Origin: Candidatus Micrarchaeota archaeon
Lineage (GTDB): Archaea > Micrarchaeota > Micrarchaeia > Norongarragalinales > SBBD01
Reading direction: 5' to 3'
DNA: 60,784 nucleotides
NCBI GenBank assembly: GCA_043803465.1
Contig: JAZDKC010000074.1
Span: 1 to 60,784, forward strand
This document shows positions 482-56,081 of the stretch, piece after piece (position 1 is the stretch's first letter; every line of letters begins with the position of its first letter). The notes beneath the pieces are model-generated. The model worked only from the letters and a program-made list of their open reading frames with translations. It had not been told where the DNA came from and did no database searches. Both the position numbers and the translations under genes were made by a program.

Positions 482-583
482 TTCAACCCACCCTCAATAA
501 ATAATATTGGCGGAATAGTAGGCGCGGGCACCATTAATAATGATTTTGGTAAAAACGGCCGCCCAACTACCAGCCCACGATTT

Positions 584-741
584 GACACATATAGGGGATG
601 ATCTAGAACCCCTTAGGTTCTAGTCATGCCAAGAAACTCTTGTTTCTTGAGCAACACATTTCCCCTGCTCGTGTTACGTAGGGCTCCACTCTACTAACAT
701 ACGAAGACATACGTCTTCGGCATGTCGCCTCCGCCCCTTTG
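584..741 (-). repeat. Long (158 nt) form of the GACAC/GTGTC hairpin element, directly after the kae1 stop
   Basis: Minus strand starts CAAAGGGGCGGAGGCGACATG, contains AACACGAGCAGGGG and several hairpins (CGAAGAC/GTCTTCG, CAAGAAAC/GTTTCTTG, CTAGAACC/GGTTCTAG), ends CCCCTATATGTGTC; followed by a copy of the kae1 3' end (567-583). Confidence 0.8.
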
Positions 742-1779
742 CTACCATCCAACGATTTCGGCATCAATCCTCGCCTTTTGGTTGTGCGAGGTGTCTTTCC
801 GATAGCAATTCGAGGCAAATTGGAGTGCGCCGGTTATTGTTATCATGCCCGCATTATCCCCCAATAATCCGAAGGGGGGGAAGCAACAGCCTATATCGTG
901 CTCCTTTGCCAATTCAATTGTCATCTCCTGCAACCGTTTATTCCGGTAATTCCCCCCGACTCCGATGATTTCCCTTTTTCTGGTCAAGGTGAGGGCACGT
1001 TCGGAAGCCTCAAGAAGCGCTGAGAACGCATATTCCTGCGCGGAATAGCAGATGTCGGAAATAGAATGCTTGGCAGGATTCAATTTTATTGCAGCTGTAA
1101 GCACACCGGAAAAGGATGCGTTCATCCCCTTGACGATATAGGGCAAATCGATGAGGTTTTTTCCATTAACCGCCTCGTTCATGACACCCACCGCATCAGG
1201 GGGCGAGAGCTGGAAATGCCTTCCAACGTGATCAAGAAAATTGCCCAATCCGATATCCAATGTTTCACCCAAAACCCGGTAATGCCTTTTCTTTTTCCCG
1301 TTTTCCAACACCATGATTTGCGTGTTCCCCCCTGAAACGTAAATAGCAAGCGGATCTTTGCAGCTGAAAAGGAAGCGCCCAATCTCGATGTGGGAAAGCG
1401 CATGGTTTACGGGCATTATGGGAATATTTTTTGAAACGGAGATGCTCTTTGCCGCAACATGGCCCAAATGGAGGCAATGCCCGATGCCCGGCCCGTAGGA
1501 ATAGCAAACAGCATCCAGATCCGAGAGCGTTATTTTAGCTTTTTCAAGGGTGGCATCCAAAATCCTATCAAAATTCTTCGCATGGAAATCAGCTAGCCTG
1601 CGGGGGATGAAGCCTTCCTTGAGGGAGGGGAACTTCATATCGGTTTCGGAAATGATTTTGGTGTTTTGCGGAGTAAGGGGGTGCGCCTTCGCTTTGCCCG
1701 CTGCTGAGAGGTCAACTTTGCTTTCAACAACTGCTGCGCCAAATGTATGTGCGGTACTTTCAAAACCAAGTATTAACAT
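742..1779 (-). CDS. kae1: tRNA t6A biosynthesis protein Kae1/TsaD
   Basis: ILGFESTAHT, GPG, NHALSHIE, YVSGGNTQ, GETLDIGLGN, DNAGMI; start moved to ATG 1779. Confidence 0.93.
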   Translation of the reverse strand: MLILGFESTAHTFGAAVVESKVDLSAAGKAKAHPLTPQNTKIISETDMKFPSLKEGFIPRRLADFHAKNFDRILDATLEKAKITLSDLDAVCYSYGPGIGHCLHLGHVAAKSISVSKNIPIMPVNHALSHIEIGRFLFSCKDPLAIYVSGGNTQIMVLENGKKKRHYRVLGETLDIGLGNFLDHVGRHFQLSPPDAVGVMNEAVNGKNLIDLPYIVKGMNASFSGVLTAAIKLNPAKHSISDICYSAQEYAFSALLEASERALTLTRKREIIGVGGNYRNKRLQEMTIELAKEHDIGCCFPPFGLLGDNAGMITITGALQFASNCYRKDTSHNQKARIDAEIVGW

Positions 1780-1823
1780 AATTGAAGTCACGCTGCGGAA
1801 ATTTAATAAACTTCTCAAATTAA

Positions 1824-1875
1824 GGGGGGTGGGGGGATGCTAACACGGGCAGGGGCAAAGCCCCCGGGAGGTGTC
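1824..1875 (+). repeat. Hairpin element copy in the divergent kae1/DP1 promoter region
   Basis: G-tract..GCTAACACGGGCAGGGGCAAAGCCCCCGGGAGGTGTC, with TTTAATAAA-containing copies at 1802 and 1877. Confidence 0.8.
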
Positions 1876-1939
1876 GTTTAATAAATTTCCGCAAATAATA
1901 CAATATCGATAGGGGGGAATTCCGGTTTTTTTCGAATTT

Positions 1940-3454
1940 GTGATAACCATGCCTATTGACAGGGCTCAAATTCTGCTCATGCTGAAGGAGAAGGAGCTGA
2001 TGGCATCCCCGGAGGCGTTGGACGCGCTAATCAATTCGGACAACCCCGAGGCGATAATTGGAGAGCTCGCAAAAAGGAATATCATTGTCGCTGATTTTGA
2101 GCAGGTGCACGACATCATTGAAAGCAGGGGGGTGGATGAGAAGGTCGTGCAGGTCGAGGTTCTGCAGGAAACGAGCTACAATCCTGCTGCAAAAGGCGTG
2201 GAGGCCAAGCTAAATCTGTCAATCCGGAACGATGTGACCGGAAAATCACGATGCACAGGCAGCGTGGATGATTTCGTGAGGTATTTCAATGACAGATACG
2301 ATAAGCATCGCAGGAGCCTGAGGGGGATGGCAACAAATGGAGGCGGGCTTTCAACCATTCGGGATGTGAAAAATTACCTCAAAAACAAGGAGGCGCGGAT
2401 CATCACGATGGTTTACGACAAGCGCATCACCAAAAACGGCCACCTGATGTTTGATGTTGAGGACGACCAAAGCACTGCAAGCGTATTGGTGCCGAAGGAC
2501 TCGCAGCTGTTCTACGAGGCATCGCAAATCCTCAATGACGAGGTGGTCGCATTCGATGTGTACCACTCGAACTCCTCGCTTCTTATCGCAAAGAATTTCG
2601 TGAGGCCCGGAAGGCTGCTTCAGGAGCGCACGAAAAAACTCATTGACGAGGATATTGGCATCGGCTTCCTTTCGGATTTGCATGTGGGCTCGAAATTCTT
2701 CATGCAGGAGAATTTCCAGAAATTCCTCGAGTTCATGAACGGGAAGGGCACTGCGGCGCAAAGGGAGGTCGCGGGCAAAATCAAATATTTATGCTTCGGA
2801 GGGGACAATGTGGACGGAATCGGCGTTTTTCCGGGGCAGGAAAAGCAGCTGGTCACAAAAGGGATCCATACGCAATACGAAATATTCTGCGAATTCATAA
2901 AGAACATCCCGGAGCATGTCGAGATAATCATTGCGCCCGGGAATCATGATGCGGTAAGGACTGCGGAGCCGCAGCCTGCGCTCCCGCAGGAGTTCTGGGA
3001 GGCACTGAAAGGCTATAGCAACGTTCATTTTGTCGGCAATCCATCCGCTCACAACGTGCATGGCTTGGAACTTTTGGTTTACCACGGCACTTCCCTTGAC
3101 GGGATAATTTCACACACGCAAATGTACAAGGACGGCTATATACATCCTGAAAAAGTCGCGGTAGGGCTTTTGCAAAGGAAGCACCTCGCCCCGCTTTACG
3201 GGGAGGATCCGTTGGTGCCAGAAGCGCACGATTTCATGGTGATAGAGGAAACGCCGGACATGTTCCATTTCGGGCATGTGCACAAGAATGGGCATATTGA
3301 GAATTACAATGGCACGTTGATTGTTAATTCGGGGACATGGCAGGATAGGACGGATTACCAGGTGAGGCTGGGGCACATGCCAACGCCATGCATCCTGCCG
3401 ATTTACAGCATGAAGAGCGGGAAGCTGCAGCACATTGATTTCAAGGGGGTATAA
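1940..3454 (+). CDS. polB: DNA polymerase D small subunit DP1 (proofreading exonuclease)
   Basis: OB fold plus phosphoesterase motifs SDLHVGS, GDNVDG, PGNHD, YHG, GHVH; adjacent to DP2. Confidence 0.95.
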   Translation: MITMPIDRAQILLMLKEKELMASPEALDALINSDNPEAIIGELAKRNIIVADFEQVHDIIESRGVDEKVVQVEVLQETSYNPAAKGVEAKLNLSIRNDVTGKSRCTGSVDDFVRYFNDRYDKHRRSLRGMATNGGGLSTIRDVKNYLKNKEARIITMVYDKRITKNGHLMFDVEDDQSTASVLVPKDSQLFYEASQILNDEVVAFDVYHSNSSLLIAKNFVRPGRLLQERTKKLIDEDIGIGFLSDLHVGSKFFMQENFQKFLEFMNGKGTAAQREVAGKIKYLCFGGDNVDGIGVFPGQEKQLVTKGIHTQYEIFCEFIKNIPEHVEIIIAPGNHDAVRTAEPQPALPQEFWEALKGYSNVHFVGNPSAHNVHGLELLVYHGTSLDGIISHTQMYKDGYIHPEKVAVGLLQRKHLAPLYGEDPLVPEAHDFMVIEETPDMFHFGHVHKNGHIENYNGTLIVNSGTWQDRTDYQVRLGHMPTPCILPIYSMKSGKLQHIDFKGV

Positions 3455-3642
3455 AAATGCAAAATCAGGGGGGTAGGCGGCAAAACGAGTGGGGAACCGA
3501 AGGTGCCCCGGAGGTGTCGAGCACATTGATTTCAAGAAGTTTTAATTTACGCAAAACGGGGAGGGGAGAGGCGACACGAGTGGGGAACCGCAGGTGCCCC
3601 GGAGGTGTCGAGCACATTGATTTCAAGGGGGTATAAAAATGC
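3429..3642 (+). repeat. Tandem array with 91-bp period: two hairpin elements (3468-3518, 3558-3609) and three copies of the DP1 3' end
   Basis: AGCACATTGATTTCAAG at 3429, 3520 and 3611; 32-bp identity between 3429-3460 and 3611-3642. Confidence 0.92.
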
Positions 3643-6600
3643 CAGAAGCCAGCGAGATGATGCAGAAATATTTTACCGAGCTTGAAGGGAAGTTCGCTGA
3701 TGCGTGGGCCATCGCATCAGAGGCCAGGAAGAGGCATCTCGATCCGGCGGACATAATTGAAACGAGGCCCGCAAAGAACATTTTCAGCAGGGTGGAAGGA
3801 TTGGTGGGGCCAGTTGGGGTCGCCGCCAGAATAGAGGAGATAAGCGAAGGGAAATCGAGGGAGGAGCTGGTATTCGAGATTGCCAGGGAAATCATGGATG
3901 AGTTGGCATACAAGCCGGCAGGTTATGAAAACGAGCACGAAAAAAAGGAAAAGCTAATAGAGCAGGCAATAAGGACCGGCCTCGCATTATTCACGGAAGG
4001 GGTTGTGAGCGCGCCCATCGAAGGGATTTCACAGGTGAGGCTGAAAAAAAACGCGGATGGGACGGACTTCTTGGCGGTATATTTTGCCGGCCCGATCAGG
4101 GGCGCTGGCGGAACAGGCCAGGCATTTTCAGTGCTGCTTGCGGATTTTTGCAGGCAACATTTGCACATCGGGAATTACAGGCCCTCGGAAACGGAAATCG
4201 AGAGGTATATCGAGGAATCGAACCTGTATGCGATCAAAACGCGCGCAGGCCAATATGTGCCAACTGATGATGAGATCAGGCATATTGTGACCAATTGCGC
4301 GGTATGCATCACCGGGGAGCCAACTGAGGATTACGAGATCAACGTGCACAAGGACACATACAATGTGGAGAGCAACAGGGTAAGGGGCGGAATGTGCCTT
4401 GTTGTTTCGGAAGGGATCTGCCTGAAGGCTGCGAAGGTTTTGAAAATCTCAAGGAAGCACAACATTCAATGGGATTGGCTTGAAGCGCTGATCAAGGTAG
4501 CGAAAAAAGCAGCTGCTAAAACCGAGCTTAGGCCCATGGAAAAGTACATAGATGAAATCGTCGCAGGAAGGCCGATTTTCGCATACCCGATGGCTAGGGG
4601 CGGTTTCCGGTTGAGGTATGGAAGGACGAGATTCACAGGAATCGCGAGCAAGGCAGTTCATCCTGCGACAATGGTCGCGCTTGATGAGTTCCTTGCTTTC
4701 GGCACGCAGATGAAAATCGAGCGGCCCGGCAAGGGCTGCATTGTAACGCCATGCAGTGCAATCGAAGGCCCGACGGTAAGGCTGAAGAGCGGCGAAGTGA
4801 GGAAGCTTGAAACGAAAGAAGACGCATACCTATTGAAAAACGAGATTGAAAGGATCATTTTTGTGGGCGATCTGCTGGTTAATTACGGCGATTTCCTCAA
4901 GGCGAACCATCCATTGGTGCCTTCCGCATGGTGCGAGGAATGGTATCAGCTGGAATTGGACGCTAAGGGCGAGAAGAAAACAATAGAGCAGATAAAGCAC
5001 ATGACAGCGGATGAGGCATTTGCGCTTTCCCAAAAACTGCAAGTGCCGCTTGCGCCGAGCTACACGTACCATTACCACGATTTATCCGTGCAGGAATTAA
5101 GGCAGGCCGCGGAATGGCTTTGCAGCGGCAAGCTGATAAAGGAATGGTTTGATTTGAGGGGATACAGGGTCGAGAAAGCAGAAGGCGCAAAAAACAAGAA
5201 GGAATTGCTCGAAAGGCTGTGCGTTCCCCACAAAGTAGAGGGCGAATTCGTGGTAATCGAGAAAAACAATGCGATCGCACTCCTGAAAACCTTGGGGTTG
5301 CTCAAGGATACCCTGACAATGGACTTTTTTGACAAGCATTATTCCAAGGAAAAGGAGGTTATGGAGCTCGTGAATGAGCTTGCGGGAATCAAAATACACC
5401 GGAAAGTGGGGATTTACATCGGCGGAAGCCAGGGACGGCCTGAGAAGGCAAAGGAGCGCAAGATGAAGCCGCCCGTGCACTCATTATTCCCGGTCGGCGA
5501 ATGGGGCGGGAAATCACGCGGGCTCGTGAAGGCAAAGGGATTGCTCAAGGAGAAGGCAAACGGGATGATTGAAGAGGAAATGGAGATTTCAATCTGCCCA
5601 ATCTGCGGGAAAAAGGTGCTAGGAAGGATTTGCGAAAGCTGCAATGAGCTTGCGGAAAGGAGGAGCAAGTGCCCCAATCCAAGGTGCAATTCAGTTGGCG
5701 GGGCAAGCCAGGAAAAGTGCATCAAATGCGGCTCGAACATGCAAAAATATGAGAAGCAGGTCGTGGGTTTTGTGGATGCATTTGAAAGAGCCGAGGCGAA
5801 GGTGAGTTTCAAGCCGGAAGAAGTGAAAGGCGTGCAGGGATTGATTTCAGCGACAAAAACCCCCGAAGCACTTGAGAAAGGGATCCTCCGGGCGAAGCAT
5901 GGCCTTTCCGTTTTCCGGGATGGCACTTGCAGGTTTGATGCAACAGAAATTCCCTCCACCCACTTCATCCCTTCGGAAATCAACATTTCAATAGAAAAAT
6001 TGCATGAACTGGGGTATGGGAAAGATATACATGGCAATCCGGTCACATCCTTGGACCAGGTAATCGAAATGAAGGCACAGGACGTCATTATTTCGGACTA
6101 TGCGGCGGAATATTTCATGCGGGTTTCTAATTTCATCGATGACCTTCTTGTTTACCAGTATGGCGCCCGCGCATATTACAACGCAAAGAAATCCGAGGAC
6201 CTGATCGGGAAATTGCTCATTGGGATCGCGCCGCATACTTCCGCCGGAATCCTTTGCCGCGTGATCGGGTATTCCAAAATAAGGGGCATAATTGCGCACC
6301 CGTACCTGCATTGCGCCGCAAGGAGGAATTGCGATGGCGATGAATTGTCGTATATTTTGCTGCTGGATGCATTGCTTAATTTCTCCAAATTATTCCTGCC
6401 CGAAACGCGCGGCGGGCAAATGGATGCATTATTGGTATTGACCACCATCCTCGACCCGAATGAAATCGATGATGGGGCGCATGCAATGGACTGCACAACG
6501 CAATACCCGTTGGAATTCTATGAGATGAGCCTTAGGCTTGCAGCGCCAAGCGAGGCGAAAATCGAAAAGGTTGCGGACCGGCTCGGGACGCAGGCGCAAT

Positions 6601-7070
6601 ATGAAAATATCAATTACACCCATTTCGCGAAATTAGAAGGCCCGATTGAAACAAGGTACGTCCAGCTCACCAACATGAAGGAGAAGGTGGACGCGGAGTT
6701 GGAGCTGATGGGCAAAATTGCGGCGGTGGATGTGAGGAACGCGACGGAGCGGATCATACTCTCGCATTTCTTCCCGGACCTGTATGGAAACCTGCGCAAA
6801 TTCTCGAAGCAAAAATTCCGGTGCGTCGATTGCGGCATGAAATTCCGGAGGGTGCCCTTGCAGGGCAAGTGCTTCAAGTGCGGGGGGAAATTGCTGCTCA
6901 CGGTGAACAAGGGCGGGATCACCAAATACCTCGAACTCTCGAAATCGCTGGTGGAAAAATACGAGCTGCCCGACTACCTGAGGCAGAGGCTGATGCTGAT
7001 CGAGAGGGAGATCAAGAGCATTTTCGAGGATGAAAAAGTCAAACAATTCAGCTTGAGCGATTATGCATAA
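3639..7070 (+). CDS. polC: DNA polymerase D large subunit DP2
   Basis: AGPIRGAGGT, GGFRLRYGR, RRNCDGDE, CxxC zinc modules; no intein apparent. Confidence 0.96.
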   Translation: MPEASEMMQKYFTELEGKFADAWAIASEARKRHLDPADIIETRPAKNIFSRVEGLVGPVGVAARIEEISEGKSREELVFEIAREIMDELAYKPAGYENEHEKKEKLIEQAIRTGLALFTEGVVSAPIEGISQVRLKKNADGTDFLAVYFAGPIRGAGGTGQAFSVLLADFCRQHLHIGNYRPSETEIERYIEESNLYAIKTRAGQYVPTDDEIRHIVTNCAVCITGEPTEDYEINVHKDTYNVESNRVRGGMCLVVSEGICLKAAKVLKISRKHNIQWDWLEALIKVAKKAAAKTELRPMEKYIDEIVAGRPIFAYPMARGGFRLRYGRTRFTGIASKAVHPATMVALDEFLAFGTQMKIERPGKGCIVTPCSAIEGPTVRLKSGEVRKLETKEDAYLLKNEIERIIFVGDLLVNYGDFLKANHPLVPSAWCEEWYQLELDAKGEKKTIEQIKHMTADEAFALSQKLQVPLAPSYTYHYHDLSVQELRQAAEWLCSGKLIKEWFDLRGYRVEKAEGAKNKKELLERLCVPHKVEGEFVVIEKNNAIALLKTLGLLKDTLTMDFFDKHYSKEKEVMELVNELAGIKIHRKVGIYIGGSQGRPEKAKERKMKPPVHSLFPVGEWGGKSRGLVKAKGLLKEKANGMIEEEMEISICPICGKKVLGRICESCNELAERRSKCPNPRCNSVGGASQEKCIKCGSNMQKYEKQVVGFVDAFERAEAKVSFKPEEVKGVQGLISATKTPEALEKGILRAKHGLSVFRDGTCRFDATEIPSTHFIPSEINISIEKLHELGYGKDIHGNPVTSLDQVIEMKAQDVIISDYAAEYFMRVSNFIDDLLVYQYGARAYYNAKKSEDLIGKLLIGIAPHTSAGILCRVIGYSKIRGIIAHPYLHCAARRNCDGDELSYILLLDALLNFSKLFLPETRGGQMDALLVLTTILDPNEIDDGAHAMDCTTQYPLEFYEMSLRLAAPSEAKIEKVADRLGTQAQYENINYTHFAKLEGPIETRYVQLTNMKEKVDAELELMGKIAAVDVRNATERIILSHFFPDLYGNLRKFSKQKFRCVDCGMKFRRVPLQGKCFKCGGKLLLTVNKGGITKYLELSKSLVEKYELPDYLRQRLMLIEREIKSIFEDEKVKQFSLSDYA

Positions 7071-7102
7071 TAATAAATTCAAGAACTGTGTGAATTAGCA
7101 AT

Positions 7103-8362: not shown

Positions 8363-8368
8363 ACGAGT

Positions 8369-9574: not shown

Positions 9575-9592
9575 ATTAAACGGAAATAGAAT

Positions 9593-10729: not shown

Positions 10730-10839
10730 ACTTAGTAGGAGCCGCTGATTTTTATCTTTTTGGGTGGAATCGGGCCGGATTCATATTTTGAAAAAGCGCA
10801 CAAAAGCAAGCTTTTTAACCGGGGAGGGGGTTATGTATT

Positions 10840-11322
10840 TTGATGCCGATGGGATTCTCCCTTTTACTTTCATTCATGCCGCTCCTTGGGATAATCCAGA
10901 CCCTCGAGGACCTGGGGTTCGTGTTCAAATTGGTCGTCTTCTCCTATATGGTTTTTTGGCTGTATATGAACTTGCGCGAGAATCCCATTCTTTTCGGGAT
11001 GGGCGTGATCATCGCGTCATTCTTTACGCTGGTGCAGCCGCTGCCGACAATAATCCTTGTGGTGATATTCGTGATATTCTTCACGATGGGCTACCACTTG
11101 CAGTTCCTCATACAGTTCGGGCTCTACCCGCTGCTTAGGATATTCGGGATTGAAATGGAGCATCCCGAGATGATCGAACAGCAGAAGATACATGGGATAG
11201 AGCAGAAGCTTCGGAAGGGCTTGGAAATCTCGGATGAGGAGGAGAAATTCATGGAGGATTTGCACAAACGGGAGGCGACTTACCAAAAGAAGATGCAGGA
11301 AAGGATGATGAGATATTCTTAG
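10840..11322 (+). CDS. Membrane protein with charged C-terminal tail
   Basis: Several hydrophobic helices; first of three co-oriented small membrane ORFs. Confidence 0.7.
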   Translation: MMPMGFSLLLSFMPLLGIIQTLEDLGFVFKLVVFSYMVFWLYMNLRENPILFGMGVIIASFFTLVQPLPTIILVVIFVIFFTMGYHLQFLIQFGLYPLLRIFGIEMEHPEMIEQQKIHGIEQKLRKGLEISDEEEKFMEDLHKREATYQKKMQERMMRYS

Positions 11323-39799: not shown

Positions 39800-39842
39800 T
39801 TGATTTCGGATTTATTAGAGATATTTAATTTTAGGAACCCTT

Positions 39843-39886
39843 GACACCTAGGGAATACGAATCCCCCATCGTGTCGCCTTGCCCCC
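39843..39886 (-). repeat. Hairpin element after the phosphoesterase stop
   Basis: GGGGGCAAGGCGACACGATGGGGGATTCGTATTCCCTAGGTGTC, followed by a copy of the gene 3' end (39815-39842). Confidence 0.9.
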
Positions 39887-39888
39887 TC

Positions 39889-40677
39889 TTAGAGATATTT
39901 TATCTTTGGAAACTCCTTGACGCCGCCTTCCTCATCGATCACTGTTGGAACGAATTCATCGATGTTGCAATCCTTTAGGATCGGCGACACCAGATCGTTG
40001 TCATAATGGCCGGAAACAAGGTCCGTGCCAGATGCAAGCGGGGATAAGGAGGGGAGTACCAGCAGCTCCTTCCGGTTGAATTCGCCCCTAAGCGCGCAAT
40101 TGTATTTATGGGGCACATTTATCTCATCGCGCAGCGAAACAGCGGGGTGCACATGCCCGATCACAAGGGTTTTGTATTCCTTGAATTCCGGAATATCGCC
40201 GTATTCCTCCAATTTCTTGTGCCCGTGGACGAATAACACGCCCTTTTCGAAAAAATAGTCGTGCATTTTCAGGTTCTGGTTGCGCAATATCTTTTGCACG
40301 TAATTGTCATGGTTTCCGCGCACCAAAATCAGCTCGATTTCCCGCTTCTTGAAAAAATTAAGCAATTGCAGCACTTCATCCCATTCCTGCTGCAGCGGCT
40401 TTGAGAATTCGTGCTTGAGATCGCCGTTGATCAGGACGCGTTTTGCCTTGGTTCCCTTGAGCATCGCCTCAAGCCGTTCAATAATTATCGGGAATTGGGG
40501 GGCAGGCACCTCGATGCCGATATTATGAAGCACCGCCTCATGCCCCATCTGAATGTCGGAAACCGCAAGCAGCCCAAGCTCTTCGAAATAAACCCCGCTT
40601 TCCTTGAGGACCTTGATTTTTGCACCTTCCCTTTTTTTGAAGAAATTATCGATTCGAGAGCGCATATCCATTTTCAA
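39889..40677 (-). CDS. Lhr-associated metallophosphoesterase
   Basis: SDIQMG, NGDLKH, RGNHD, VHGH, GHVHP; downstream of lhr. Confidence 0.88.
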   Translation of the reverse strand: MKMDMRSRIDNFFKKREGAKIKVLKESGVYFEELGLLAVSDIQMGHEAVLHNIGIEVPAPQFPIIIERLEAMLKGTKAKRVLINGDLKHEFSKPLQQEWDEVLQLLNFFKKREIELILVRGNHDNYVQKILRNQNLKMHDYFFEKGVLFVHGHKKLEEYGDIPEFKEYKTLVIGHVHPAVSLRDEINVPHKYNCALRGEFNRKELLVLPSLSPLASGTDLVSGHYDNDLVSPILKDCNIDEFVPTVIDEEGGVKEFPKIKYL

Positions 40678-44912: not shown

Positions 44913-45168
44913 GCAACGCCTCCGGGGGACCGGTTGCCCCTACTCGTGTTGCCCCTACCCCTTCTGATTTTGAATACCTTTATAACCGGCAACTCCCAAA
45001 ACAATAACGCAGTCTTCCAGATAGCCGGGGAGCTAAGGGATTCGACACCCACAGGGGAATGGCTTCCCCTCCACGTGTCGCCGCCACCCCTTCCGATTTT
45101 GAATACATTTATAACCGGCAACTCCCAAAACAATAACGCAGTCTTCCAGATAGCCGGGGAGCTAAGGG
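44913..45168 (-). repeat. 129-bp period duplication: two hairpin elements (44913-44961, 45044-45090) plus a duplicated SRP promoter/5' end
   Basis: 83-bp repeats at 44957-45039 and 45086-45168, 2 mismatches. Confidence 0.92.
45108..45114 (+). promoter_or_regulatory. TATA box of the SRP RNA gene (duplicated at 44979)
   Basis: TTTATAA ~24 nt upstream of the predicted RNA 5' end. Confidence 0.7.
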
Positions 45169-45416
45169 TTCCTTACAATCGCCAATCCCTTTGAGGCGAG
45201 TGAAAGCTGCGGGAAGGGTGGGAAGCGTTTCTTCAGCCCGTTGCGGTGCCGTCGAAGCGTTGCCTTGCGTTATGCGTTTACCTGTGAATGAGCCAGGCCG
45301 GAAGGAGCAACTATAAACGGACAAATGCATGCTCGCAAGACACAACGTGGAGGCGCCGGAGCGGACTTAGCTGAAGGGAAATTTCCAATTCGACCCGCTG
45401 CGCGCTGGGGGGCTGC
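45138..45416 (+). ncRNA. ffs: Archaeal SRP (7S) RNA
   Basis: Helix-8 motif CCAGGCCGGAAGGAGCA; Alu-like GCCGGGGAGCTAAGGGTTCCTTACAA; terminal helix GCAGTCTTCCAG/CTGGGGGGCTGC; ~280 nt. Confidence 0.88.
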
Positions 45417-46238: not shown

Positions 46239-46302
46239 AATTCAAGAAGCTTAAAAAATTCACAACTCCTAGCATTTTCAACTTAGTACTTGAGGGATAA
46301 AC

Positions 46303-47217: not shown

Positions 47218-47233
47218 CTTTTTTTCGCGGTGT

Positions 47234-48163: not shown

Positions 48164-48179
48164 TGGGCATACCTGCTGA

Positions 48180-48998: not shown

Positions 48999-49039
48999 TG
49001 CAAATCAGCTCCATTAATTGAAGTAAAGTTAACTTAATT

Positions 49040-49783
49040 ATGCTTTTAAATATGGCAACATATCAATTTTGGGATGTTCCCATGGAATTCAACTTGGACC
49101 TGATGAAAACGCTGTTCCCCCAAAGCGGGAAGCCGATGCACATGCTCAAATGGGGCTACCCCGAATCGCGGTACACAGCACCGGTCGGGGATATTGAAAA
49201 GAAAATCCCAATCCTCAAGAAGAGCTGCAAATTTTCTGGAGGGGGGGAGTTTATGGAGGAAGTGCATGCGAAGGAATACGGGCAGGGGGTTTTTGCTTAT
49301 TTCGTAGTGAGGACCGATAAGAAGACCGAGCAGGAGTCGATGTTTGCTGATGCTTATATGCTAAGGGAGGATGATAAGCTGGGGTTTGATGTGCAGCAGG
49401 CGTTCAAGATCTCGGAGGACCTCGATAAGATGGGATATAGGCATGCGTTCGACCGAGAGATCATCGTGTGGAGCTTCCGATCAATCGCAAAAACCGTGAA
49501 CGCGTTTTCAGTTGCGGATTTCGGCGATTTCATCGAAGTAGGATTGCCCGCAACGAAAATGAAAAGCATGCGGGATTTGGATGAGAAGTGGGTCTTTCCG
49601 TTCTTTGAAAGGCTCGGGATCAGGAAGGAGGAGGTGATCCCGACTGATTTGCTCACGCTGCAGCTCATGACAATGCTCCAGGCACAACAGGAAGCGGATG
49701 CGCAGCCAAAGGGAGGGGAAGCGAAGGGGAGGGGGGGGAAAGTGCTCGGAATGGGCGGCGGGCAAAAAGGCAACTTGTTCTAA
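49040..49783 (+). CDS. Degenerate CYTH-like domain protein
   Basis: LDKMGY....R..W, V.DFGDFIEV, F..LGI pattern of CyaB/CYTH, but no ExExK. Confidence 0.45.
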   Translation: MLLNMATYQFWDVPMEFNLDLMKTLFPQSGKPMHMLKWGYPESRYTAPVGDIEKKIPILKKSCKFSGGGEFMEEVHAKEYGQGVFAYFVVRTDKKTEQESMFADAYMLREDDKLGFDVQQAFKISEDLDKMGYRHAFDREIIVWSFRSIAKTVNAFSVADFGDFIEVGLPATKMKSMRDLDEKWVFPFFERLGIRKEEVIPTDLLTLQLMTMLQAQQEADAQPKGGEAKGRGGKVLGMGGGQKGNLF

Positions 49784-49792
49784 GGGGAGAAA

Positions 49793-51322
49793 ATGTCCTA
49801 TAAAAAGTACAACTGGAGCATAATCGCCTCCGACATCAATTCGCCGTTCTTCCGGAATTACATCTGGATAGGCTCGTTCTACAAGCAGGCGGAAATATTC
49901 GGCATAACTAGGGCGAAACTCGGGATATATTCGGCAAAAAACCAGATCGCATATGTAAGCGACATGGATTCATGGGAGCAGGCGCATCAGGGGCTGAGGC
50001 TTAAAATTGAGCAGGACTGCCATTTTCTGGATAAGCTGATAGATAGGACGAATGCAACGGGGGAGGCGTTCAACAGCTGGAGCGAAAAAAGCATCTGGAA
50101 GAGGGATTTGAAGAAACTCGAAAATGCCGAATTGATTGGATTGCTCAATGAATTCTCGGATAAGCAGGCGGAGATGTATGCGCTAGGCACTGCCATTCCA
50201 ATAATGGATTTCCAGGGGTTCGCATTCGTGGAGGGGAATCTGCAGAAATTCCTGAAAGAAAAGGTGCCTGAGGGGAAATATGCGGAATTCTACAAAATTT
50301 TTACCGAGCCAACTTACAATTCCTTTTCGCAGGACCAGGAGGAGGGCCTTTTCAAATTGATGGATAAATTTTTTGGAAAGGGAGATTGGAGGAAGGACGT
50401 GCTGAAATTCGATTTGGAGGATCTAAACCGGAAATATCCGGATTTCGCGACGGATTTGAGAAGGCACACGGAAAAATACGCATGGGTATATTATGCGTAT
50501 GCCGGCCCGGCATTCAAGGAGGAGCAGTTTTTGGAGTTCATAAGGGATTATTTGGTCAAGAAAGTCGAACCAGGGAAAAAGCTTAAGGAAATCGCAAGAA
50601 GGAAAAAGGAATTCCTAGTTGCAAAGAAAAAGCACATCAAAGCCCTAAAACCGGATGCGTTCAACCATGCGATCCTGAATCTTGCGGGCAAGGTCGTATG
50701 GGGGAAGCCGCGCAGAAAGGATTATCAGAGCCGTTCCTATTATCATTCGGAAAAATTGTTGATTGAAATCGGCAGACGGTTGGGGTTATCGTTAAACCAG
50801 GCCAGATCTGCGCCATTCGATGTGCTGGAAACGGGGCTTCTTGGAAAATCTGTCGATAGCGATTTGTGCAATAAGATTTTTGAGAAGCATTTGGTGCTGC
50901 CGAATGATGACGGAAAAATCTCCATACTTATTGGGAGGGAGGCTGATGAGTTTTTTGAGAGGGTGCCAAAACCCGTTGAAAATGTAAAACTGCATGCAAG
51001 CAGGGAGTTTCTGGGATCGTGCGCTTGCGCGGGTTTTGCGAAAGGAAGGGTAAAAATTATCAACCTGCCAGGCGACATGGAAAAGATGGAATACGGGGAT
51101 ATCCTGGTTTCCAAGGCGACTACGCCGCCGATTGTGACTGCGATGAAAAAAGCTGCCGCAATTGTGACTGATGAGGGCGGGCTCACGTGCCATGCGGCGA
51201 TTGTGAGCAGGGAGCTGAATATTCCGTGCGTTGTGGGGACGAAAATCGCGACTGCTGTGCTTAAGGATGGGGATCTGATTGAAGTTGATGCAACGAAAGG
51301 GCTAATTCGAATAAAAAAATAG
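49793..51322 (+). CDS. Helical domain + PEP-utilising swivelling phosphohistidine domain protein
   Basis: GDILVSKATTP, TDEGGLTCHAAIVSRELNIPCVVG; no ATP-grasp domain. Confidence 0.85.
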   Translation: MSYKKYNWSIIASDINSPFFRNYIWIGSFYKQAEIFGITRAKLGIYSAKNQIAYVSDMDSWEQAHQGLRLKIEQDCHFLDKLIDRTNATGEAFNSWSEKSIWKRDLKKLENAELIGLLNEFSDKQAEMYALGTAIPIMDFQGFAFVEGNLQKFLKEKVPEGKYAEFYKIFTEPTYNSFSQDQEEGLFKLMDKFFGKGDWRKDVLKFDLEDLNRKYPDFATDLRRHTEKYAWVYYAYAGPAFKEEQFLEFIRDYLVKKVEPGKKLKEIARRKKEFLVAKKKHIKALKPDAFNHAILNLAGKVVWGKPRRKDYQSRSYYHSEKLLIEIGRRLGLSLNQARSAPFDVLETGLLGKSVDSDLCNKIFEKHLVLPNDDGKISILIGREADEFFERVPKPVENVKLHASREFLGSCACAGFAKGRVKIINLPGDMEKMEYGDILVSKATTPPIVTAMKKAAAIVTDEGGLTCHAAIVSRELNIPCVVGTKIATAVLKDGDLIEVDATKGLIRIKK

Positions 51323-51354
51323 TCAATCTGATCGGCAATATCAGCAAAGCTAAA

Positions 51355-51777
51355 TTATGCGGCAATTGTTTTCGCGGCCTTCTCAAGCAGCTTCACACCG
51401 GTTTTCGTAATAATTCTTCCGGCCTTGCCTTTCTTGACCAAACCCGCTTTTTCCATCTGCTGCATGGCCAATCTGATAACCTTCCCGCCAGCTTTGCGGT
51501 GGTGCGCCCGCCCAACTGTATGCTGCGTCCTGCCGCCGTATTTCTGCTGCAGCCTGCGCACGCCGATCATGGGGCGCTTTGCAATCAGGAGAGTGCGCAG
51601 AATTGATGCGCACCTCTTGAAAAAGAAATCCTCGTCCTCGGGGACACGCTCGTTGTGCGAGCCGCTTTTTACCATCAAAACCCAATCCGGCGCCTTGATT
51701 TCGGGAATTGATTTGAGTTCCTTCGCAGTGGCATCAACCAGCTTGTTCGCAGACACTTCCAAACTCTTCATTGTCAT
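51355..51777 (-). CDS. rps19e: 30S ribosomal protein eS19
   Basis: PDWVLMVKSGSHNER.P, RCASILR, KYGG, GKVIRLAMQQMEKAG. Confidence 0.93.
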   Translation of the reverse strand: MTMKSLEVSANKLVDATAKELKSIPEIKAPDWVLMVKSGSHNERVPEDEDFFFKRCASILRTLLIAKRPMIGVRRLQQKYGGRTQHTVGRAHHRKAGGKVIRLAMQQMEKAGLVKKGKAGRIITKTGVKLLEKAAKTIAA

Positions 51778-51850
51778 AGATAATCTACCTAAAAATAGAA
51801 AATTAGGACTACTTTTGAGGAAAATAAGATATTTAAAGGCTTGTTTTAGG

Positions 51851-52309
51851 TCACAAATCGTGCTTTTCCCAAAGCCGCTCGTCCATCGCATGGGTCCAAT
51901 GCTTCAATTTTCCATTAATCATGAATGCTGGCTGCTCGCCGTATTTTTGCCGGAGCAGGTGGTAGCCGAATTCGTGCGCCAGATCGATAACGAATGCCAA
52001 TGGTTTTCTGGCAAGCTGCTCTTCAATATGGAGGACTCCGGGTTCAATATTGATGGTGGCATAATTTCTGGCGCCCGCCCTATTTTGGACTTCATTTTCC
52101 TTGACGAATTGCACCTTCAGGCCATGAAGTTCCGCCATCATCCTGATTAGCGCCGCAACTTCGTTCTTCTGGCTTTTGGGCTTGATTTCCCCCTCATGAA
52201 TCTGGCGCCTTAGGAGATGCAGCCTCTGGAGGACCGGGCTGCTGTGGTAAACCGCCTTGATTTTCAGTAGCGCATCGCGAGCCTCCGGGCTCAGTTCTTC
52301 GGCAGTCAT
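51851..52309 (-). CDS. Orphan with an ImmA/IrrE-like AHEFGYH motif
   Basis: FVIDLAHEFGYHLL; ATGA overlap with the rpp21 stop. Confidence 0.55.
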   Translation of the reverse strand: MTAEELSPEARDALLKIKAVYHSSPVLQRLHLLRRQIHEGEIKPKSQKNEVAALIRMMAELHGLKVQFVKENEVQNRAGARNYATINIEPGVLHIEEQLARKPLAFVIDLAHEFGYHLLRQKYGEQPAFMINGKLKHWTHAMDERLWEKHDL

Positions 52310-52599
52310 GCTTTTCGCCTGGAATAAGGATATTTCTTTTCTGCCTTGCAATTATTGCAGATGAAAATCACAGCTTTTTTGGAGGGCGCGATCCTGACCT
52401 TGAGCGTTTTTCCGTGGATGAAAATCGTGCTGCATTTCTTGCAGAAGAGTTTTGAGCCTAACGGAATCCTGTGCCTCATGGCGATTCGCCTGGCTAATTG
52501 CACATACCTTTTCGAGAGCGCCTTGTCGGAATCGTAGATCTCGGCAGCCATTTTGAGAAGCTTGCCGCACCTCCTCGAAGCAATCTGGTCCAGGTTCAT
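52306..52599 (-). CDS. rnp4: RNase P protein Rpp21
   Basis: RYVQLARRIAMR, FCKKC, C.NC....YP. Confidence 0.9.
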   Translation of the reverse strand: MNLDQIASRRCGKLLKMAAEIYDSDKALSKRYVQLARRIAMRHRIPLGSKLFCKKCSTIFIHGKTLKVRIAPSKKAVIFICNNCKAEKKYPYSRRKA

Positions 52600-52715
52600 A
52601 AAATTCACGAAATTTGCGATGCGTCCAGGGCATGGCGTTCAGCTGAAAAAAATAAATTCCGACCGACTCAAAGGTCATTCATAATTCCGAAAATGCCCGA
52701 TTCGCCGGAACAGCG

Positions 52716-54269
52716 TTAATGCCTGAAGTGCCGAATGCCGGTCGTTATCATCGCGATCTTGTGCTCGTCGGCAGCCGCAATTACCTCCGAATCCCTAATG
52801 GAGCCGCCGGGCTGTATGATTGCAGCTATCCCTGAGCTTGCGGCAAAATCAACCGTATCCCTGAATGGGAAGAATGCCTCTGATGCCATCACAGCGCCCT
52901 TGACGTCAAATTTGGCGCGCTTTGCCTTTTCAATGCATATCTGGCACGAATCCACACGGCTTTGCTGCCCCGCTCCGACAGCTAGCAGCTGCTCATCCGT
53001 TGCAAAAACAACGCAATTGCTCTTGATGTGGCCCATGAACGTCCACGCGAATTCGAGCGCCCGAAGCTCCTTCCCGGTAGGTTGCCTCTTCGTGACAATT
53101 TTGAATTTCTTCATGTCGAACTCCTTCTCCAAGTAATCCGGGCTTTGCACGAGCATTCCGCCGGTGATTGAGACGCGCTTTTTCTCCGCATAAATATCCG
53201 AAACCATGAATTTGCCAGAGGCCATCACGCGCAGGTTCTTCTTGGTCTTGAAAACCTCAAGAGCGGCCGCATCATATGCGGGCGCGACGACTATTTCCAT
53301 GAAATTCTTGATCATTTCCTCCGCAGTTGGCTTGTCGACCTTTTTATTGAATGCAACTATGCCGCCGAATGCGGAAAGTGAATCAGCAGCGTATGCCATT
53401 TTGAATGCCTCGAGCGGGGTTTTCGACCTTCCCGCTCCAGTAGGGTTGGTGTGCTTGAAGACTATCGCGACTGCTTCGCGCTCATCGCGGAAATGGTGTA
53501 TCAGCTCGAGCGACGCCTGGATGTCGAGAATATTGTTGTAGGAAAGCGCCTTGCCATTGAGCTTTTCGAGATCCCCATAAGTGAGGGGCGCATCCGCAAA
53601 ACTATAGCTCGCTGCCTTTTGGTGAGGGTTCTCGCCATATCGAAGGTCTTGTATCTTCTTGAGGTGGATAAAATCGGATTGCGGGAATTCCGCATTCTCT
53701 AATATTTTTCCGAGGTAATTTGCAATTGCGATGTCGTAGCCGGCAACATGATTGAATGCTTCAGCGGCAAGCTTTTTCCGGGCCTCAACGTCAAGCTTCC
53801 CGTGCTTCAGCTTTGCCGCAATGTCATCATACTGTTGGGGCGAGGTTATCACAACCACATCGTGGAAATTCTTTGCAGCTGCCCGGACTAACGCAGGCCC
53901 GCCGATATCGATTTGCTCCACTATCTCATCTAGCTTGTCGGTTTTTTTGATGGTTTGCTCGAATGGGTAGAAGTTCACGCAAACAAGATCGATGGCATAT
54001 TCGGATGCGATTGCAGCATGCTCAAGTTTATCCCGCCGGTACAATATTCCGCCATGGATCTTGGGGTGGAGGGTTTTTACCCTGCCCTCGAGAACCTCGG
54101 GTGAGCCGGTGAATTCGGAAACATCCTTGACCGGAAGCTTTGCATCCCGGAGTGCTTTTGCGGTATTGCCTGATGCAAGCAGCTCGTACCCCAAGGTATG
54201 GAGCGCAGTGGCGAAACGCACAATGCCCTGCTTGTCATGCACGCTCAGAAGCGCGCGTTTTGTTGCCAT
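52716..54269 (-). CDS. purH: Bifunctional AICAR formyltransferase/IMP cyclohydrolase
   Basis: GRVKTLHPKIHGGIL, IDIGGP, LRYGENPHQ, SEAFFPF, GIRHFRH. Confidence 0.96.
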   Translation of the reverse strand: MATKRALLSVHDKQGIVRFATALHTLGYELLASGNTAKALRDAKLPVKDVSEFTGSPEVLEGRVKTLHPKIHGGILYRRDKLEHAAIASEYAIDLVCVNFYPFEQTIKKTDKLDEIVEQIDIGGPALVRAAAKNFHDVVVITSPQQYDDIAAKLKHGKLDVEARKKLAAEAFNHVAGYDIAIANYLGKILENAEFPQSDFIHLKKIQDLRYGENPHQKAASYSFADAPLTYGDLEKLNGKALSYNNILDIQASLELIHHFRDEREAVAIVFKHTNPTGAGRSKTPLEAFKMAYAADSLSAFGGIVAFNKKVDKPTAEEMIKNFMEIVVAPAYDAAALEVFKTKKNLRVMASGKFMVSDIYAEKKRVSITGGMLVQSPDYLEKEFDMKKFKIVTKRQPTGKELRALEFAWTFMGHIKSNCVVFATDEQLLAVGAGQQSRVDSCQICIEKAKRAKFDVKGAVMASEAFFPFRDTVDFAASSGIAAIIQPGGSIRDSEVIAAADEHKIAMITTGIRHFRH

Positions 54270-54325
54270 ATTGCAAACGCAGCCCTGCCTAACCGTTAAG
54301 TTTATAAACCTGATTGCAGTAGAAA

Positions 54326-54368
54326 TGTCACGACAATGTCATGACAATAACAAAAGGTTGTCATGCGA
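54326..54368. promoter_or_regulatory. Three TGTCAYGACA-like palindromes next to the TATA box (54301)
   Basis: TGTCACGACA 54326, TGTCATGACA 54337, TGTCATGCGA 54359. Confidence 0.6.
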
Positions 54369-54424
54369 ACGAACGCACAACAAAACCCGCCTGAATAGAA
54401 ACGCAATGGAGGTTTAAAAGAGTT

Positions 54425-54898
54425 ATGGAGAACAAGGAAGAATTCGCCAAAGTCACGGAAGAATTCCAAAGGTTCCAAGAGCAGGTGAACAACCCGGTTT
54501 TCATAGCCACATTGATGCACAAACTAAGCGAGGAGCGAAGTTCCACCAATTTGCTGTTCAAGGAATTGAACCAGAAGCTGGATAGGCTTTTGGCGCTGGA
54601 GGACAAAATCAAGGCGCTGGAACAAAAGCTCGAAACCGCAAGCACAAAGGCGGCAACACCCATTGCGACACGTGATGCATTGCTTTTACCGAAAATTGAC
54701 GAGACAATCCTGAATTACGTGCAGAAAAAAGGCAAGGTTTGCGCCGAACAGGTGCAAATGAAGTTCAAGTACAAGGGAACGAACGCAGCCTCTTCGAGAT
54801 TGAATAGGCTCGTGAAGGAAGGCGTTCTTAGGAAGCAACAGGTAGGCAGGAAGGTATTCTTCCTTCCGACCCAGCTTTTCTTTCCGAAAGAAAAGTAG
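54425..54898 (+). CDS. Coiled-coil + winged-HTH protein (putative regulator)
   Basis: ILNYV..KGKV.A..V.......NAASSRLNRLVKEGVL.K..VGRKVFF. Confidence 0.75.
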   Translation: MENKEEFAKVTEEFQRFQEQVNNPVFIATLMHKLSEERSSTNLLFKELNQKLDRLLALEDKIKALEQKLETASTKAATPIATRDALLLPKIDETILNYVQKKGKVCAEQVQMKFKYKGTNAASSRLNRLVKEGVLRKQQVGRKVFFLPTQLFFPKEK

Positions 54899-55067
54899 GG
54901 TCGTTACAAAAGAAAGGAATTTGAGTTGAAAATAAAGGTAATTTCGGAACAAAATTGACACCATAGGCTTTGATAACCTAATTTAAAATGAAAAGCCGAC
55001 GGTTCAACCCACATGGGGGCGCTTCGGCGCCCCCACCCCTCTTTTATGACCCTAGAGGGAGGAACGC

Positions 55068-55166
55068 ATGAACCCGATTCCATGGATACGGCTGGGGCAG
55101 CTTATAGTTGTGATTGCGTTAATTGCCGCGCTATACTGGATCCTGGCAATTATCCTGAAATTCTGA
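55068..55166 (+). CDS. 32-aa single-TM peptide MNPIPWIRLGQLIVVIALIAALYWILAIILKF
   Basis: GGAGG 5 nt before ATG; hydrophobic helix; below the ORF-track size cutoff. Confidence 0.65.
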   Translation: MNPIPWIRLGQLIVVIALIAALYWILAIILKF

Positions 55167-55379
55167 TTCACGGAATGGCGGATGTGCCAGGCGGACCCGG
55201 CTTCCGGAACCGGATTTTCAAAAATCGGCCCACTGTTTGACAATTTCTCCGTCGCAATACGGAAAAAAAATAAAATATCGGAACCGATATGGGGAAAAAT
55301 TTTACGAGAGAGGATTATGGATTTTCAGGAAAAACCGCCATTTTCGGTTTTTTTTACGAGCGCCGCAAAAAGCTTTATA

Positions 55380-55459
55380 TATCCATCTATAGTATGTACT
55401 GCAGGTTTGAAATACAACCTATAGTATCCGAAGAGGCGCAAAATACCAACATTTAGTAC
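55380..55459. promoter_or_regulatory. Three NrdR-box-like operators with 32-bp spacing
   Basis: TATCCATCTATAGTAT 55380, ATACAACCTATAGTAT 55412, TACCAACATTTAGTAC 55444. Confidence 0.75.
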
Positions 55460-55488
55460 CCCTTACGCCTTTTTTTGCGGTGGTTAGA

Positions 55489-55959
55489 ATGCGATGCCCG
55501 TACTGCACACATATGGAAACGAAGGTTCTCGATTCAAGGGATGCGGAGGACCTGGCGGTTACAAGGCGCAGAAGGGAGTGCGAAAAGTGTGAGAAGCGTT
55601 TCACAACATATGAGCGGGTGGAATTCCTGGACTTGGTTGTCAGGAAGAAGGATGGCAAGACCGAGCCCTTTGACCGAAAGAAGATTGAAACGGGAATGCT
55701 CAAGGCGTGCGAGAAGCGGCCAATAAGCCGGGAGAAGATCGAGGAGCTCGTGGATGAGATGGAGCGCGACATCCGCAAGAAGGAGGGCACAGAGATCCCA
55801 ACACAGGAGATTGGGGAGCTTGTTATAGAGAAGCTCAAGAAGCTCGACAAGGTCGCATACATCAGGTTCGCAAGCGTGTACCGTGAATTCACGGACCTGA
55901 ATGAGTTTGAATCGGAAATGAAGAAATTGCTCAAGAAGAGCGAAAGAGTGGAGAAATGA
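55489..55959 (+). CDS. nrdR: Transcriptional repressor NrdR
   Basis: MRCPYC..TKVLDSR..RRRECEKCEKRFTTYE, ATP cone, VAYIRFASVYREF. Confidence 0.95.
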   Translation: MRCPYCTHMETKVLDSRDAEDLAVTRRRRECEKCEKRFTTYERVEFLDLVVRKKDGKTEPFDRKKIETGMLKACEKRPISREKIEELVDEMERDIRKKEGTEIPTQEIGELVIEKLKKLDKVAYIRFASVYREFTDLNEFESEMKKLLKKSERVEK

Positions 55960-56081
55960 AATGGCAAATATGAAGGGGTAAGGCGACACGATAGGGGAAA
56001 CGTAGTTGCCCCTCAGGTGTCATGAAGAAATTGCTCAAGAAGAGCGAAAGAGTGGAGAAATGAAATGGCAAATATGAAGGG
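55918..56081 (+). repeat. Perfect 60-bp duplication of the nrdR 3' end around a hairpin element (55975-56021)
   Basis: 55918-55977 = 56022-56081; element GGGGTAAGGCGACACGATAGGGGAAACGTAGTTGCCCCTCAGGTGTC. Confidence 0.93.

Follow-up and report, generated by a model that had tools for sequence, protein, structure and literature searches.

A 60,784-nt stretch of archaeal DNA, contig C74 of a metagenome-assembled genome (MAG) of Candidatus Micrarchaeota (DPANN), was analysed and is called the window below. It carries copies of a dispersed, non-coding, multi-copy hairpin unit of about 50-70 nt, named E. Judged by sequence comparison, E is probably a non-autonomous insertion element of Micrarchaeota, akin to repetitive extragenic palindromes (REPs) and MITEs (miniature inverted-repeat transposable elements), which makes long target duplications. 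The family, its structure, the anatomy of its junctions, the repeats that flank it and the sites empty of it in related genomes were all observed directly.

The host genome (G000) consisted of 1.40 Mb in 91 contigs with 49 % G+C, and was 90.7 % complete with 3.6 % contamination; all genomes compared throughout were MAGs. Within G000, a strict motif recovered 30 copies of E, an nhmmer profile 60 (E-value < 0.01) and a covariance model (R1, built from 26 copies) 76. The same model detected E in all 10 searched genomes of the same taxonomic family (5-78 copies each), with a ten-fold spread of copy number inside the genus (8-78). Altogether 20 out of 61 searched genomes displayed matches, those outside the family, elsewhere in the order, being scattered and weaker. 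A previous interpretation made from the letters of the window alone (the sequence-only reading) had proposed a dispersed, structured, non-coding family on the strength of eight related hairpin units, and this was confirmed here: all eight were present, seven as covariance model matches of 30.8-67.6 bits and one as a partial match at 706-759(-), and the profile and the model carried the family from the window to the 60-76 copies of G000, with a covarying stem, and to the relatives. No Rfam family matched E, either at gathering score on the window or at E-values up to 1 on 10 loci. Searches of the open-access literature yielded no account of such an element in Micrarchaeota or DPANN. A viral origin was considered and rejected, as an E pattern gave 0 matches in IMG/VR.

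From 5' to 3', E is composed of an unpaired G-rich 5' arm, a lower stem, an internal loop, an upper stem with its loop and a terminal GTGTY. The lower stem is five bp long (GACAC/GTGTC or compensated variants), the internal loop is symmetric (3x3), the upper stem is made of G/C pairs and the apical loop is variable and often palindromic. The 5' arm is conserved although unpaired, with invariant positions, and often has an ATTCGCA-type motif ahead of it, together with an A/T-rich stretch. A purine immediately followed the terminal GTGTY in 58 of the 59 copies examined; no other consistent motif was found next to E, in agreement with the earlier statement that there is no consistent target-adjacent motif.

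The hairpin is kept by compensatory changes and is under selection. RNAalifold, applied to a MAFFT alignment of 26 copies, returned 13 pairs, eight of which displayed compensatory changes. Across 96 copies from six genomes the stem was paired in 96.4 % of cells, compared with 82.4 % in shuffles, and cells with a double change numbered 188 instead of 50.8; neither the pairing nor the double-change value was reached in any of 500 shuffles. This larger alignment was fitted to the model and hence favours the structure, but slid-register controls paired at most 58.7 % and the independent MAFFT alignment agreed. The outermost pair was GC in 61 cases and AU in 29 family-wide, so that the compensatory change previously pointed out in copy 44913 of the window proved to be one instance of a general covariation. 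Single-sequence folds of simple copies were moderately better than those of shuffles (z +1.1 to -3.0), and for three of the seven simple copies of the window the minimum-energy fold differed from the consensus. Covariation of this kind fits a folded RNA and a folded single-stranded DNA alike.

A composite form, in which two extra hairpins are inserted after a GGCGAC motif, was encountered in the window (584-759) and on contigs C18, C21, C25, C29 and C48. Because composite copies gain hairpins at the same place, the position after GGCGAC appears as a recurrent internal breakpoint. On contig C30 (6749-6892), three stacked 5' arms, each broken after GGCGAC, were followed by one hairpin. An ATTCGCA-like motif and G-run without any hairpin were also seen upstream of ordinary genes, in the nrdR-RNR spacer of the related genome G005 and at 56140-56185 of the window. 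The 5' arm of E thus resembles native upstream regions, and perhaps a promoter or ribosome-binding-site pattern of the clade.

E is flanked by a direct repeat of host sequence, whose downstream copy is what follows the terminal GTGTY. Flanking repeats were searched by comparing 200 nt upstream with 200 nt downstream of each copy, a downstream match having to begin no more than 8 nt past the end of the element, and mismatched flank pairs served as control. In G000, 30 of the 60 copies displayed a repeat (score of at least 10; control maximum 9) and 30 did not; with gapped alignment, 31 of 60 lay above the control 99th percentile. The sample from relatives, 67 copies at 60 loci in five other species of the genus, was picked from the best-scoring covariance model matches and not at random; 33 of these reached a score of 10 or more (control 99th percentile 8.7, maximum 11) and 34 did not. 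Repeat lengths were highly variable over all repeat-bearing copies, from 11 to 99 nt, and the two copies were 100 % identical in nine of the 30 pairs of G000.

The junctions were compared at 57 pooled loci with scores of at least 12 and repeats of 14-99 nt. The downstream arm of the repeat began directly after GTGTY in 33 loci and 1-6 nt further in the other 24, and the 3' junction was free of extra identity in 43 of the 57. The upstream arm, on the other hand, ended anywhere from 14 nt inside to 124 nt before the profile start (which lies 22 nt upstream of the lower-stem ACACG). In 17 of the 57 loci, the 5' junction fell within the arm of E or its G-run, host G's replacing those of the element. 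The 3' end of E is therefore exact, while its 5' end is variable and prone to microhomology. A sharp 3' junction with upstream host sequence copied behind it, as formerly described for the window, was thus found to hold at large. The accompanying view of E as a scaffold followed by a guide did not survive: what had been called the guide is the downstream arm of a duplication, ranges over 11-99 nt and is missing in half of the copies.

Within the window, the elements and their repeats are arranged as follows (bits are covariance model scores).
567-583 (-): downstream repeat copy of the Kae1 end, about 17 nt, whose 3 mismatches are all silent in the frame of Kae1
584-759 (-): composite E with its 5' arm, two hairpins after GGCGAC, two more hairpins within its enlarged loop, and GTGTC as its terminus at 584; partial match at 706-759(-), 17.1 bits; fold of 584-730 at -57.3 kcal/mol, z -5.3
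742-758 (-): upstream repeat copy, in which the Kae1/TsaD gene (742-1779; Pfam TsaD, 2.3e-55) actually ends, stop included
1804-1875 (+): degenerate E, 30.8 bits, between the divergent Kae1 and DP1 genes
3429-3460 (+): upstream repeat copy, 32 nt, comprising the DP1 stop and a now-unused copy of the start of the next gene
3449-3518 (+): first E of the junction between DP1 and the next gene, 55.7 bits
3520-3536 (+): middle repeat copy, 17 nt
3540-3609 (+): second E of the same junction, 66.2 bits, with full 5' arm
3611-3642 (+): downstream repeat copy, with the working ribosome-binding site and start of a 1143-aa open reading frame (ORF; 3639-7070), putatively DP2
39815-39837 (-): downstream partner of the phosphoesterase-end repeat, 23 nt, 3 mismatches, all silent
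39843-39908 (-): E after the metallophosphoesterase gene (39889-40677; Pfam Metallophos), 45.2 bits
39889-39911 (-): upstream repeat copy, in which the phosphoesterase gene actually ends, stop included
44915-44983 (-): second E of a tandem pair, its downstream member, of a different subfamily, 59.3 bits, with no repeat after it
44958-45039 (-): spare copy of the 5' region of the signal recognition particle (SRP) RNA gene, 82 nt, 2 mismatches to 45099-45180
45044-45112 (-): E beside the SRP RNA gene, 67.6 bits
45099-45180 (-): repeat copy attached to the SRP RNA gene (45143-45411, +), made of its upstream region and about its first 38 nt
55918-55977 (+): upstream repeat copy, made up of the final 13 codons of nrdR (55480-55959; Pfam NrdR), its stop and 18 further nt
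55952-56021 (+): E, 60.4 bits, its 5' arm replaced by host sequence ending in a G-run
56022-56081 (+): downstream repeat copy, a spare nrdR end, 60 nt, 100 % identical, upstream of the RNR gene (56183-58903)

The repeat at 742-758 and 567-583 was read by eye and carries no tool score. A copy of upstream host sequence after GTGTC had been claimed for seven of the eight elements; it was clear for six, borderline for 1804-1875 (a 13-nt repeat with score 10, against a control maximum of 9) and absent from 44915-44983. That the sites are ends of conserved genes was corroborated by matches to Kae1/TsaD, PolD DP1, metallophosphoesterase, NrdR, RNR and SRP RNA. The last of these was identified at 45143-45411(+) over the full length of the Archaea_SRP model with 74.9 bits (E-value 1e-16; Rfam gathering score 96.5); being sub-gathering, the gene was missed by the default Rfam scan. 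A 23-codon ORF (56064-56135, +) begins right after the nrdR stop, and its first six codons were duplicated along with the E insertion.

Gene calls in G000 were our own and crude, and ORFs may be mis-extended through E units. According to these calls, E lies between genes and its repeats span the gene boundary. One arm was always attached to the working unit, and every gene end remained complete. For Kae1, DP1, phosphoesterase and NrdR of the window, the attached arm was the 3' end of the upstream gene. On contigs C6 and C59 it was the start of the downstream gene, the ATG standing 6 nt past a terminal GGAGGTG-like stretch of E. At the SRP RNA gene it was the 5' region of a unit on the opposite strand, and elsewhere the 3' end of an opposite-strand gene. 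Copies were also found within 1 nt of a tRNA-Arg 5' end and of a tRNA-Thr 3' end. With the same crude calls, E was oriented like both of its neighbours in 20 cases and opposite in eight. Genes bracketed by two copies of E encoded an E1 dehydrogenase, a fumarase, a KH protein or a KaiC-like protein, or belonged to no family. The full-length, ORF-carrying copies that the sequence-only reading proposed to look for were consequently rejected, as the bracketed genes are ordinary housekeeping genes or without family.

Presence and absence were followed in the relatives (G001 to G006), where comparison of orthologous sites, as formerly suggested, did reveal empty ones. At the junction between DP1 and the next gene, the empty site of G006 consists of a stop, five bases and a start; G000 displays two E and three repeat copies there, the 3' ends of both E being joined to the same host position. 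At the end of UppS, E occurs in G000 only, and the sites of all five relatives are clean; a scan of metagenomes with the UppS protein brought up nothing but distant relatives, at best 41 % identical. At the nrdR end, G000 has a simple E with its 60-nt identical repeat and G003 a composite E with its own 42-nt repeat, while four others have none. The end of a zinc-ribbon gene is occupied in G000, G005 and G006, with different subfamilies and repeat starts, and unoccupied in G002, G003 and G004. The junction of a thiolase-like gene with the next is occupied in G000 and G002, which share the 5' junction and differ in subfamily and repeat start; G004 and G006 have at this place a small membrane-protein gene of some 90-110 codons, instead of which G000 (C70:8500-8620) and G002 have E. 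In G003 and G002 the Hsp20-like end is occupied by different subfamilies with different starts; it is clean in G004 and G001, and G000 has no E there. Another gene end carries four E and five gene-end copies in G003 and one E with the same repeat limits in G002, with none in four others. As different subfamilies occupy the same ends in different species, some gene ends are used repeatedly. The DP1/DP2 junctions of G005, G004 and G003 display degenerate extra DP1 ends, or an A-rich stop/start repeat, without an intervening E. These E-less duplicates indicate that duplicated ends can outlive E or arise without it.

The two arms of a repeat differed in the way functional alleles do. Read in the frame of the attached gene, the differences were nearly all silent, with third-position changes of every kind, and they included exchanges from stop to stop (TAA/TAG/TGA) and from start to start (ATG/GTG). 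This was assessed in 27 repeat pairs with at least two mismatches (132 mismatches in total) by taking the minimum amino-acid difference across all six frames, with the same rule for data and simulations. Summed amino-acid differences amounted to 21, compared with a simulated mean of 60.9 (2000 simulations, minimum 48); the deficit was present in G000 (6 versus 28.0) as well as in the relatives (15 versus 33.1). The extremes were the Hsp20-like end of G003 (14 mismatches in 61 nt, one amino-acid change) and a pair on contig C60 of G000 (11 mismatches in 55 nt, one amino-acid change). All five gene-end copies of the G003 array kept an open frame and stop, and neighbouring spare copies differed there, by manual count, at about 17 silent and four replacement codons. 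When the longest open frame was chosen instead, 41 % of changes were non-synonymous versus 81 % in simulations, frames being unreliable in this case as spurious ORFs run through E. Spare arms had their own derived silent changes (zinc-ribbon and UppS/nrdR comparisons) and shared amino-acid variants peculiar to their own species.

Several simple accounts of these arms were rejected. Neutral decay of the spare arm does not agree with 21 amino-acid differences versus 60.9 simulated, nor does a frozen fossil, of which the attached arm alone would change, agree with the derived silent changes of spare arms. In-frame read-through or a ribosome hop over E was discarded since E carries stops and the distance from arm to arm is spread evenly over the three frames (19/18/20). 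Un-overlapping of a promoter or ribosome-binding site fits the thiolase-like junction, where the downstream arm is the start of the next gene, but fails as sole cause at the zinc-ribbon locus: there the arm reaches neither a TATA-like box nor the next gene's start.

Why the arms differ in this way was weighed among three accounts. It is quite conceivable, if somewhat short of an even chance, that attached copies have been replaced by recombination with diverged alleles or that E and one arm were copied between lineages. Slightly less probable is selection on the spare arm itself, excision or recombination between arms regularly making it part of the gene. Use at the level of RNA seems most improbable. 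A wider proposal, which we hold only tentatively, is that spare gene ends are kept working and that E may be a reversible, "polite" element or a recombination hotspot, whose removal would rejoin the gene to its spare arm; in a variant of it, E and one arm would home between lineages as a replacement gene end. If the proposal were true, both arms, and arrays of up to five ends, would be under protein-level purifying selection over species-divergence times, and a mobile element would then stand in a relation of a new kind to the coding sequence that it duplicates.

An enzyme was sought in the genomes. The TnpB-type domain (PF07282) was above cut-off in none of the seven genomes of the genus, the control being positive in eight of 14 reference genomes. 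The Y1 transposase (PF01797) was present in two of the seven and was not found in G000, which is 90.7 % complete; nor were RVT_1, Cas1 or a tyrosine recombinase/integrase domain (XerA-type included) found there. The only DDE transposase gene of G000 (C17:8789-10000, -) is IS5-like, with 111 bits against a cut-off of 140, and reached 27.4 bits against the IS1634 model NF033559 (cut-off 100). One copy of E lies 24 nt from its end and there is none at the other end; repeated TGTGCA-type motifs occur near both ends, and the adjoining E has its own degenerate 32-nt flanking repeat. That E might be an end of this IS5-like element was rejected, no second end having been found and the ends being unrelated. 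Fen1 was detected in 56 of the 61 searched genomes, all E-bearing ones included, and a link of E to Fen1 loss was rejected on this ground.

As an insertion element, E would enter in DNA form, at a break or flap with a wide stagger. Its 3' end would be joined bluntly at a host position p and its 5' arm at a position q downstream of p, often by microhomology within the G-run and otherwise at full length; filling in of the interval from p to q on both sides would then produce the duplication. In so tightly packed a genome, survivors would be those insertions whose duplication holds the whole boundary, leaving the unit on either side with a complete end. The enzyme at work might belong to the conserved replication or repair activities of the host; alternatively, an unrecognised protein acting in trans may read E through its invariant positions. 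The order of joining, DNA rather than RNA as the intermediate, and the enzyme are the parts of this mechanism that we infer.

Several observations weigh against insertion as proposed. The mobility of E rests on comparison and not on direct observation, and the searches of G000 yielded no partner enzyme. Half of the copies are without a repeat and few repeats are half-decayed. Spare arms do not decay like junk, unlike those expected from a transposon that inserts and is forgotten. At least two insertions share the same host position p (3519 and 3610 of the window, the G003 array and G002), which suggests target choice or growth of arrays. Copies are old and diverse (median nearest-neighbour identity of about 0.89) and nothing indicates that a master copy has recently multiplied in a burst, copies with identical repeats, diverged repeats or no repeats being equally close to their nearest neighbour.

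It is rather unlikely that E is instead a stem-loop functional for the host (protector of mRNA ends, processing site or protein-binding site) with no dedicated transposase, whose copies and duplications would arise incidentally when hairpins are replicated or repaired, by a switch of template or from flaps left unprocessed. The conservation of sequence and structure throughout the family without a recognisable transposase would suit such a role, as would the age and diversity of copies and the excess of E co-oriented with both neighbours (20 versus eight, from crude calls). The microhomology at the 5' G-run and the short 3' filler resemble repair joints, and the duplicated gene ends without E at the DP1/DP2 junctions of G004 and G005 could have such an origin; yeast rad27/FEN1 mutants reportedly accumulate duplications of about 5-108 bp. 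However, Fen1 is present in all E-bearing genomes and its simple loss explains nothing, one exact 3' base at dozens of loci is unusual for pure template switching, and a ten-fold range of copy number within a genus is unexpected of a required signal.

A homing unit appears distinctly unlikely. E and one arm would be copied by homologous recombination between diverged lineages into the same gene end, leaving a resident and a donor allele on its two sides. The almost exclusively synonymous differences between arms, stop-to-stop and start-to-start included, the derived silent changes of spare arms, the occupation of the same gene ends in different species and the coexistence of diverged strains in the sample (contig overlaps of 90-96 % identity) all speak in its favour. 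Spare arms nevertheless carry amino-acid variants of their own species, so that the donors would have to be unsampled close kin, up to 23-30 % different at the DNA level, between which recombination is inefficient. Moreover, the E found at shared sites belong to different subfamilies and start their repeats differently, and we know of no nuclease that would cut some 60 different empty sites.

An RNA-guided system, with E as scaffold and the sequence past GTGTC as guide for a trans-encoded homing nuclease or repressor, is very improbable. It was suggested by the sharp 3' junction with host-derived sequence next to it, and the covarying hairpin and the invariant unpaired positions of the 5' arm, which evoke a bound partner, are in keeping with it; synonymous divergence of the gene-attached copy could in principle represent escape from self-targeting. 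A guide would, however, vary from 11 to 99 nt and be missing in half of the copies, the upstream copy would be a perfect self-target in nine of 30 repeat pairs of G000, and the downstream copy is often itself a working gene start, gene end or tRNA flank. The TnpB-type domain was above cut-off in none of seven genomes of the genus, RT and Cas1 were not found in G000, Rfam gave no match, and no consistent adjacent motif exists past the purine after GTGTY. An artefact of assembly from a mixed-strain metagenome, to which the 91 contigs, the 3.6 % contamination and the 90-96 % identical contig overlaps might point, is barely credible: 63 loci share this architecture, spread over six MAGs that each represent a species of their own (one with only seven contigs), the inserted sequence is a conserved, covarying family, and a strain switch in a de Bruijn graph should not be able to make a duplication absent from both strains.

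Some features of the G000 bin were noted in passing. It mixes at least two related strains, as contig ends overlap with 90-96 % identity across 0.4-2.2 kb (pairs C14/C87, C32/C37, C34/C53, C30/C68, C91/C26, C18/C72, C11/C85 and C43/C88). Further contig pairs align at 72-80 % over 1-2 kb and represent paralogues or a second species. ARAGORN recovered 12 tRNA genes only, and a XerA-type tyrosine recombinase domain was not detected; both reflect incompleteness of the MAG or else unusual genes, such as those of split or intron-rich tRNAs.

E adds an abundant and conserved repeat family to the DPANN archaea, whose small genomes are usually deemed poor in mobile DNA, and it illustrates insertion into overlapping gene boundaries without damage. 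Selection on spare copies, if true, would amount to a new evolutionary mechanism, while under allele turnover or homing the arms would be built-in records of recombination between unculturable lineages. In practice, gene callers and annotators will mis-extend ORFs through E units, as our crude caller did.

Among known systems, E works most like REPs and MITEs, yet it departs from what defines them: it has no RAYT, no matching insertion sequence (IS) and no short fixed duplication. REPs are palindromes of 35-60 nt found in tens to hundreds of copies between genes and within operons; they form subfamilies and tandem or mosaic arrangements, show compensatory changes in their hairpins and are mobilised by RAYT. 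E has in common with REP, BIME and REPIN sequences the imperfect palindrome, extragenic location, high copy number and preserved structure. It differs by the absence of a GTAG/CGTC tag and by its conserved unpaired 5' arm, and a cognate Y1 gene flanked by the repeats, as in REP/REPIN-RAYT systems, was not found in G000 (90.7 % complete). To our knowledge, REPs have not been described with flanking duplications of 11-99 nt. Like MITEs, E is small, non-coding and multi-copy, is flanked by direct repeats, has no gene of its own and is variably present in relatives. It displays, however, one hairpin in place of terminal inverted repeats matching an autonomous IS, none related to it having been found. 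The target duplications of MITEs are short and of fixed length, whereas those of E are variable (11-99 nt) and absent at half of the copies.

The remaining candidates are more distant. IS200/IS605 ends, PATEs and TnpB omega RNAs have, like E, a strand-specific hairpin close to one end, and flanking sequence begins at a sharp boundary. IS200/IS605 elements insert without target duplication, and the flank copy of E is an arm of a direct repeat of 11-99 nt and not a fixed guide taken from a single flank, in genomes of which none of seven gave a TnpB match above cut-off. Elements that supply diverged replacement gene ends, reportedly including phages e14 and 21 in icd and an insert in atp6 of Allomyces, resemble E in presenting two 3'-end copies that differ mostly silently while the gene stays intact; they measure kilobases, encode an integrase or endonuclease and use one site, in contrast to about 50-70 nt and about 60 sites for E. 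Diversity-generating retroelements differ, as RVT_1 is not found in G000 and arm differences are not restricted to adenines, and CRISPR arrays likewise, as Cas1 is not found in G000, and here it is the insert that stays constant and local host sequence that makes up the "repeat".

The closest resemblance in the duplication itself is with family IS1634. Its elements are 1.5-2 kb long with a DDE transposase, of a type not found here. Direct repeats of IS1549/IS1634 are long and variable, from 8 to 514 bp, with no mechanistic model put forward for them (PMC2266710). Among insertion sequences, we could document a parallel to the long variable duplications of E for these alone. E would accordingly represent a second independent case of long variable target duplication.

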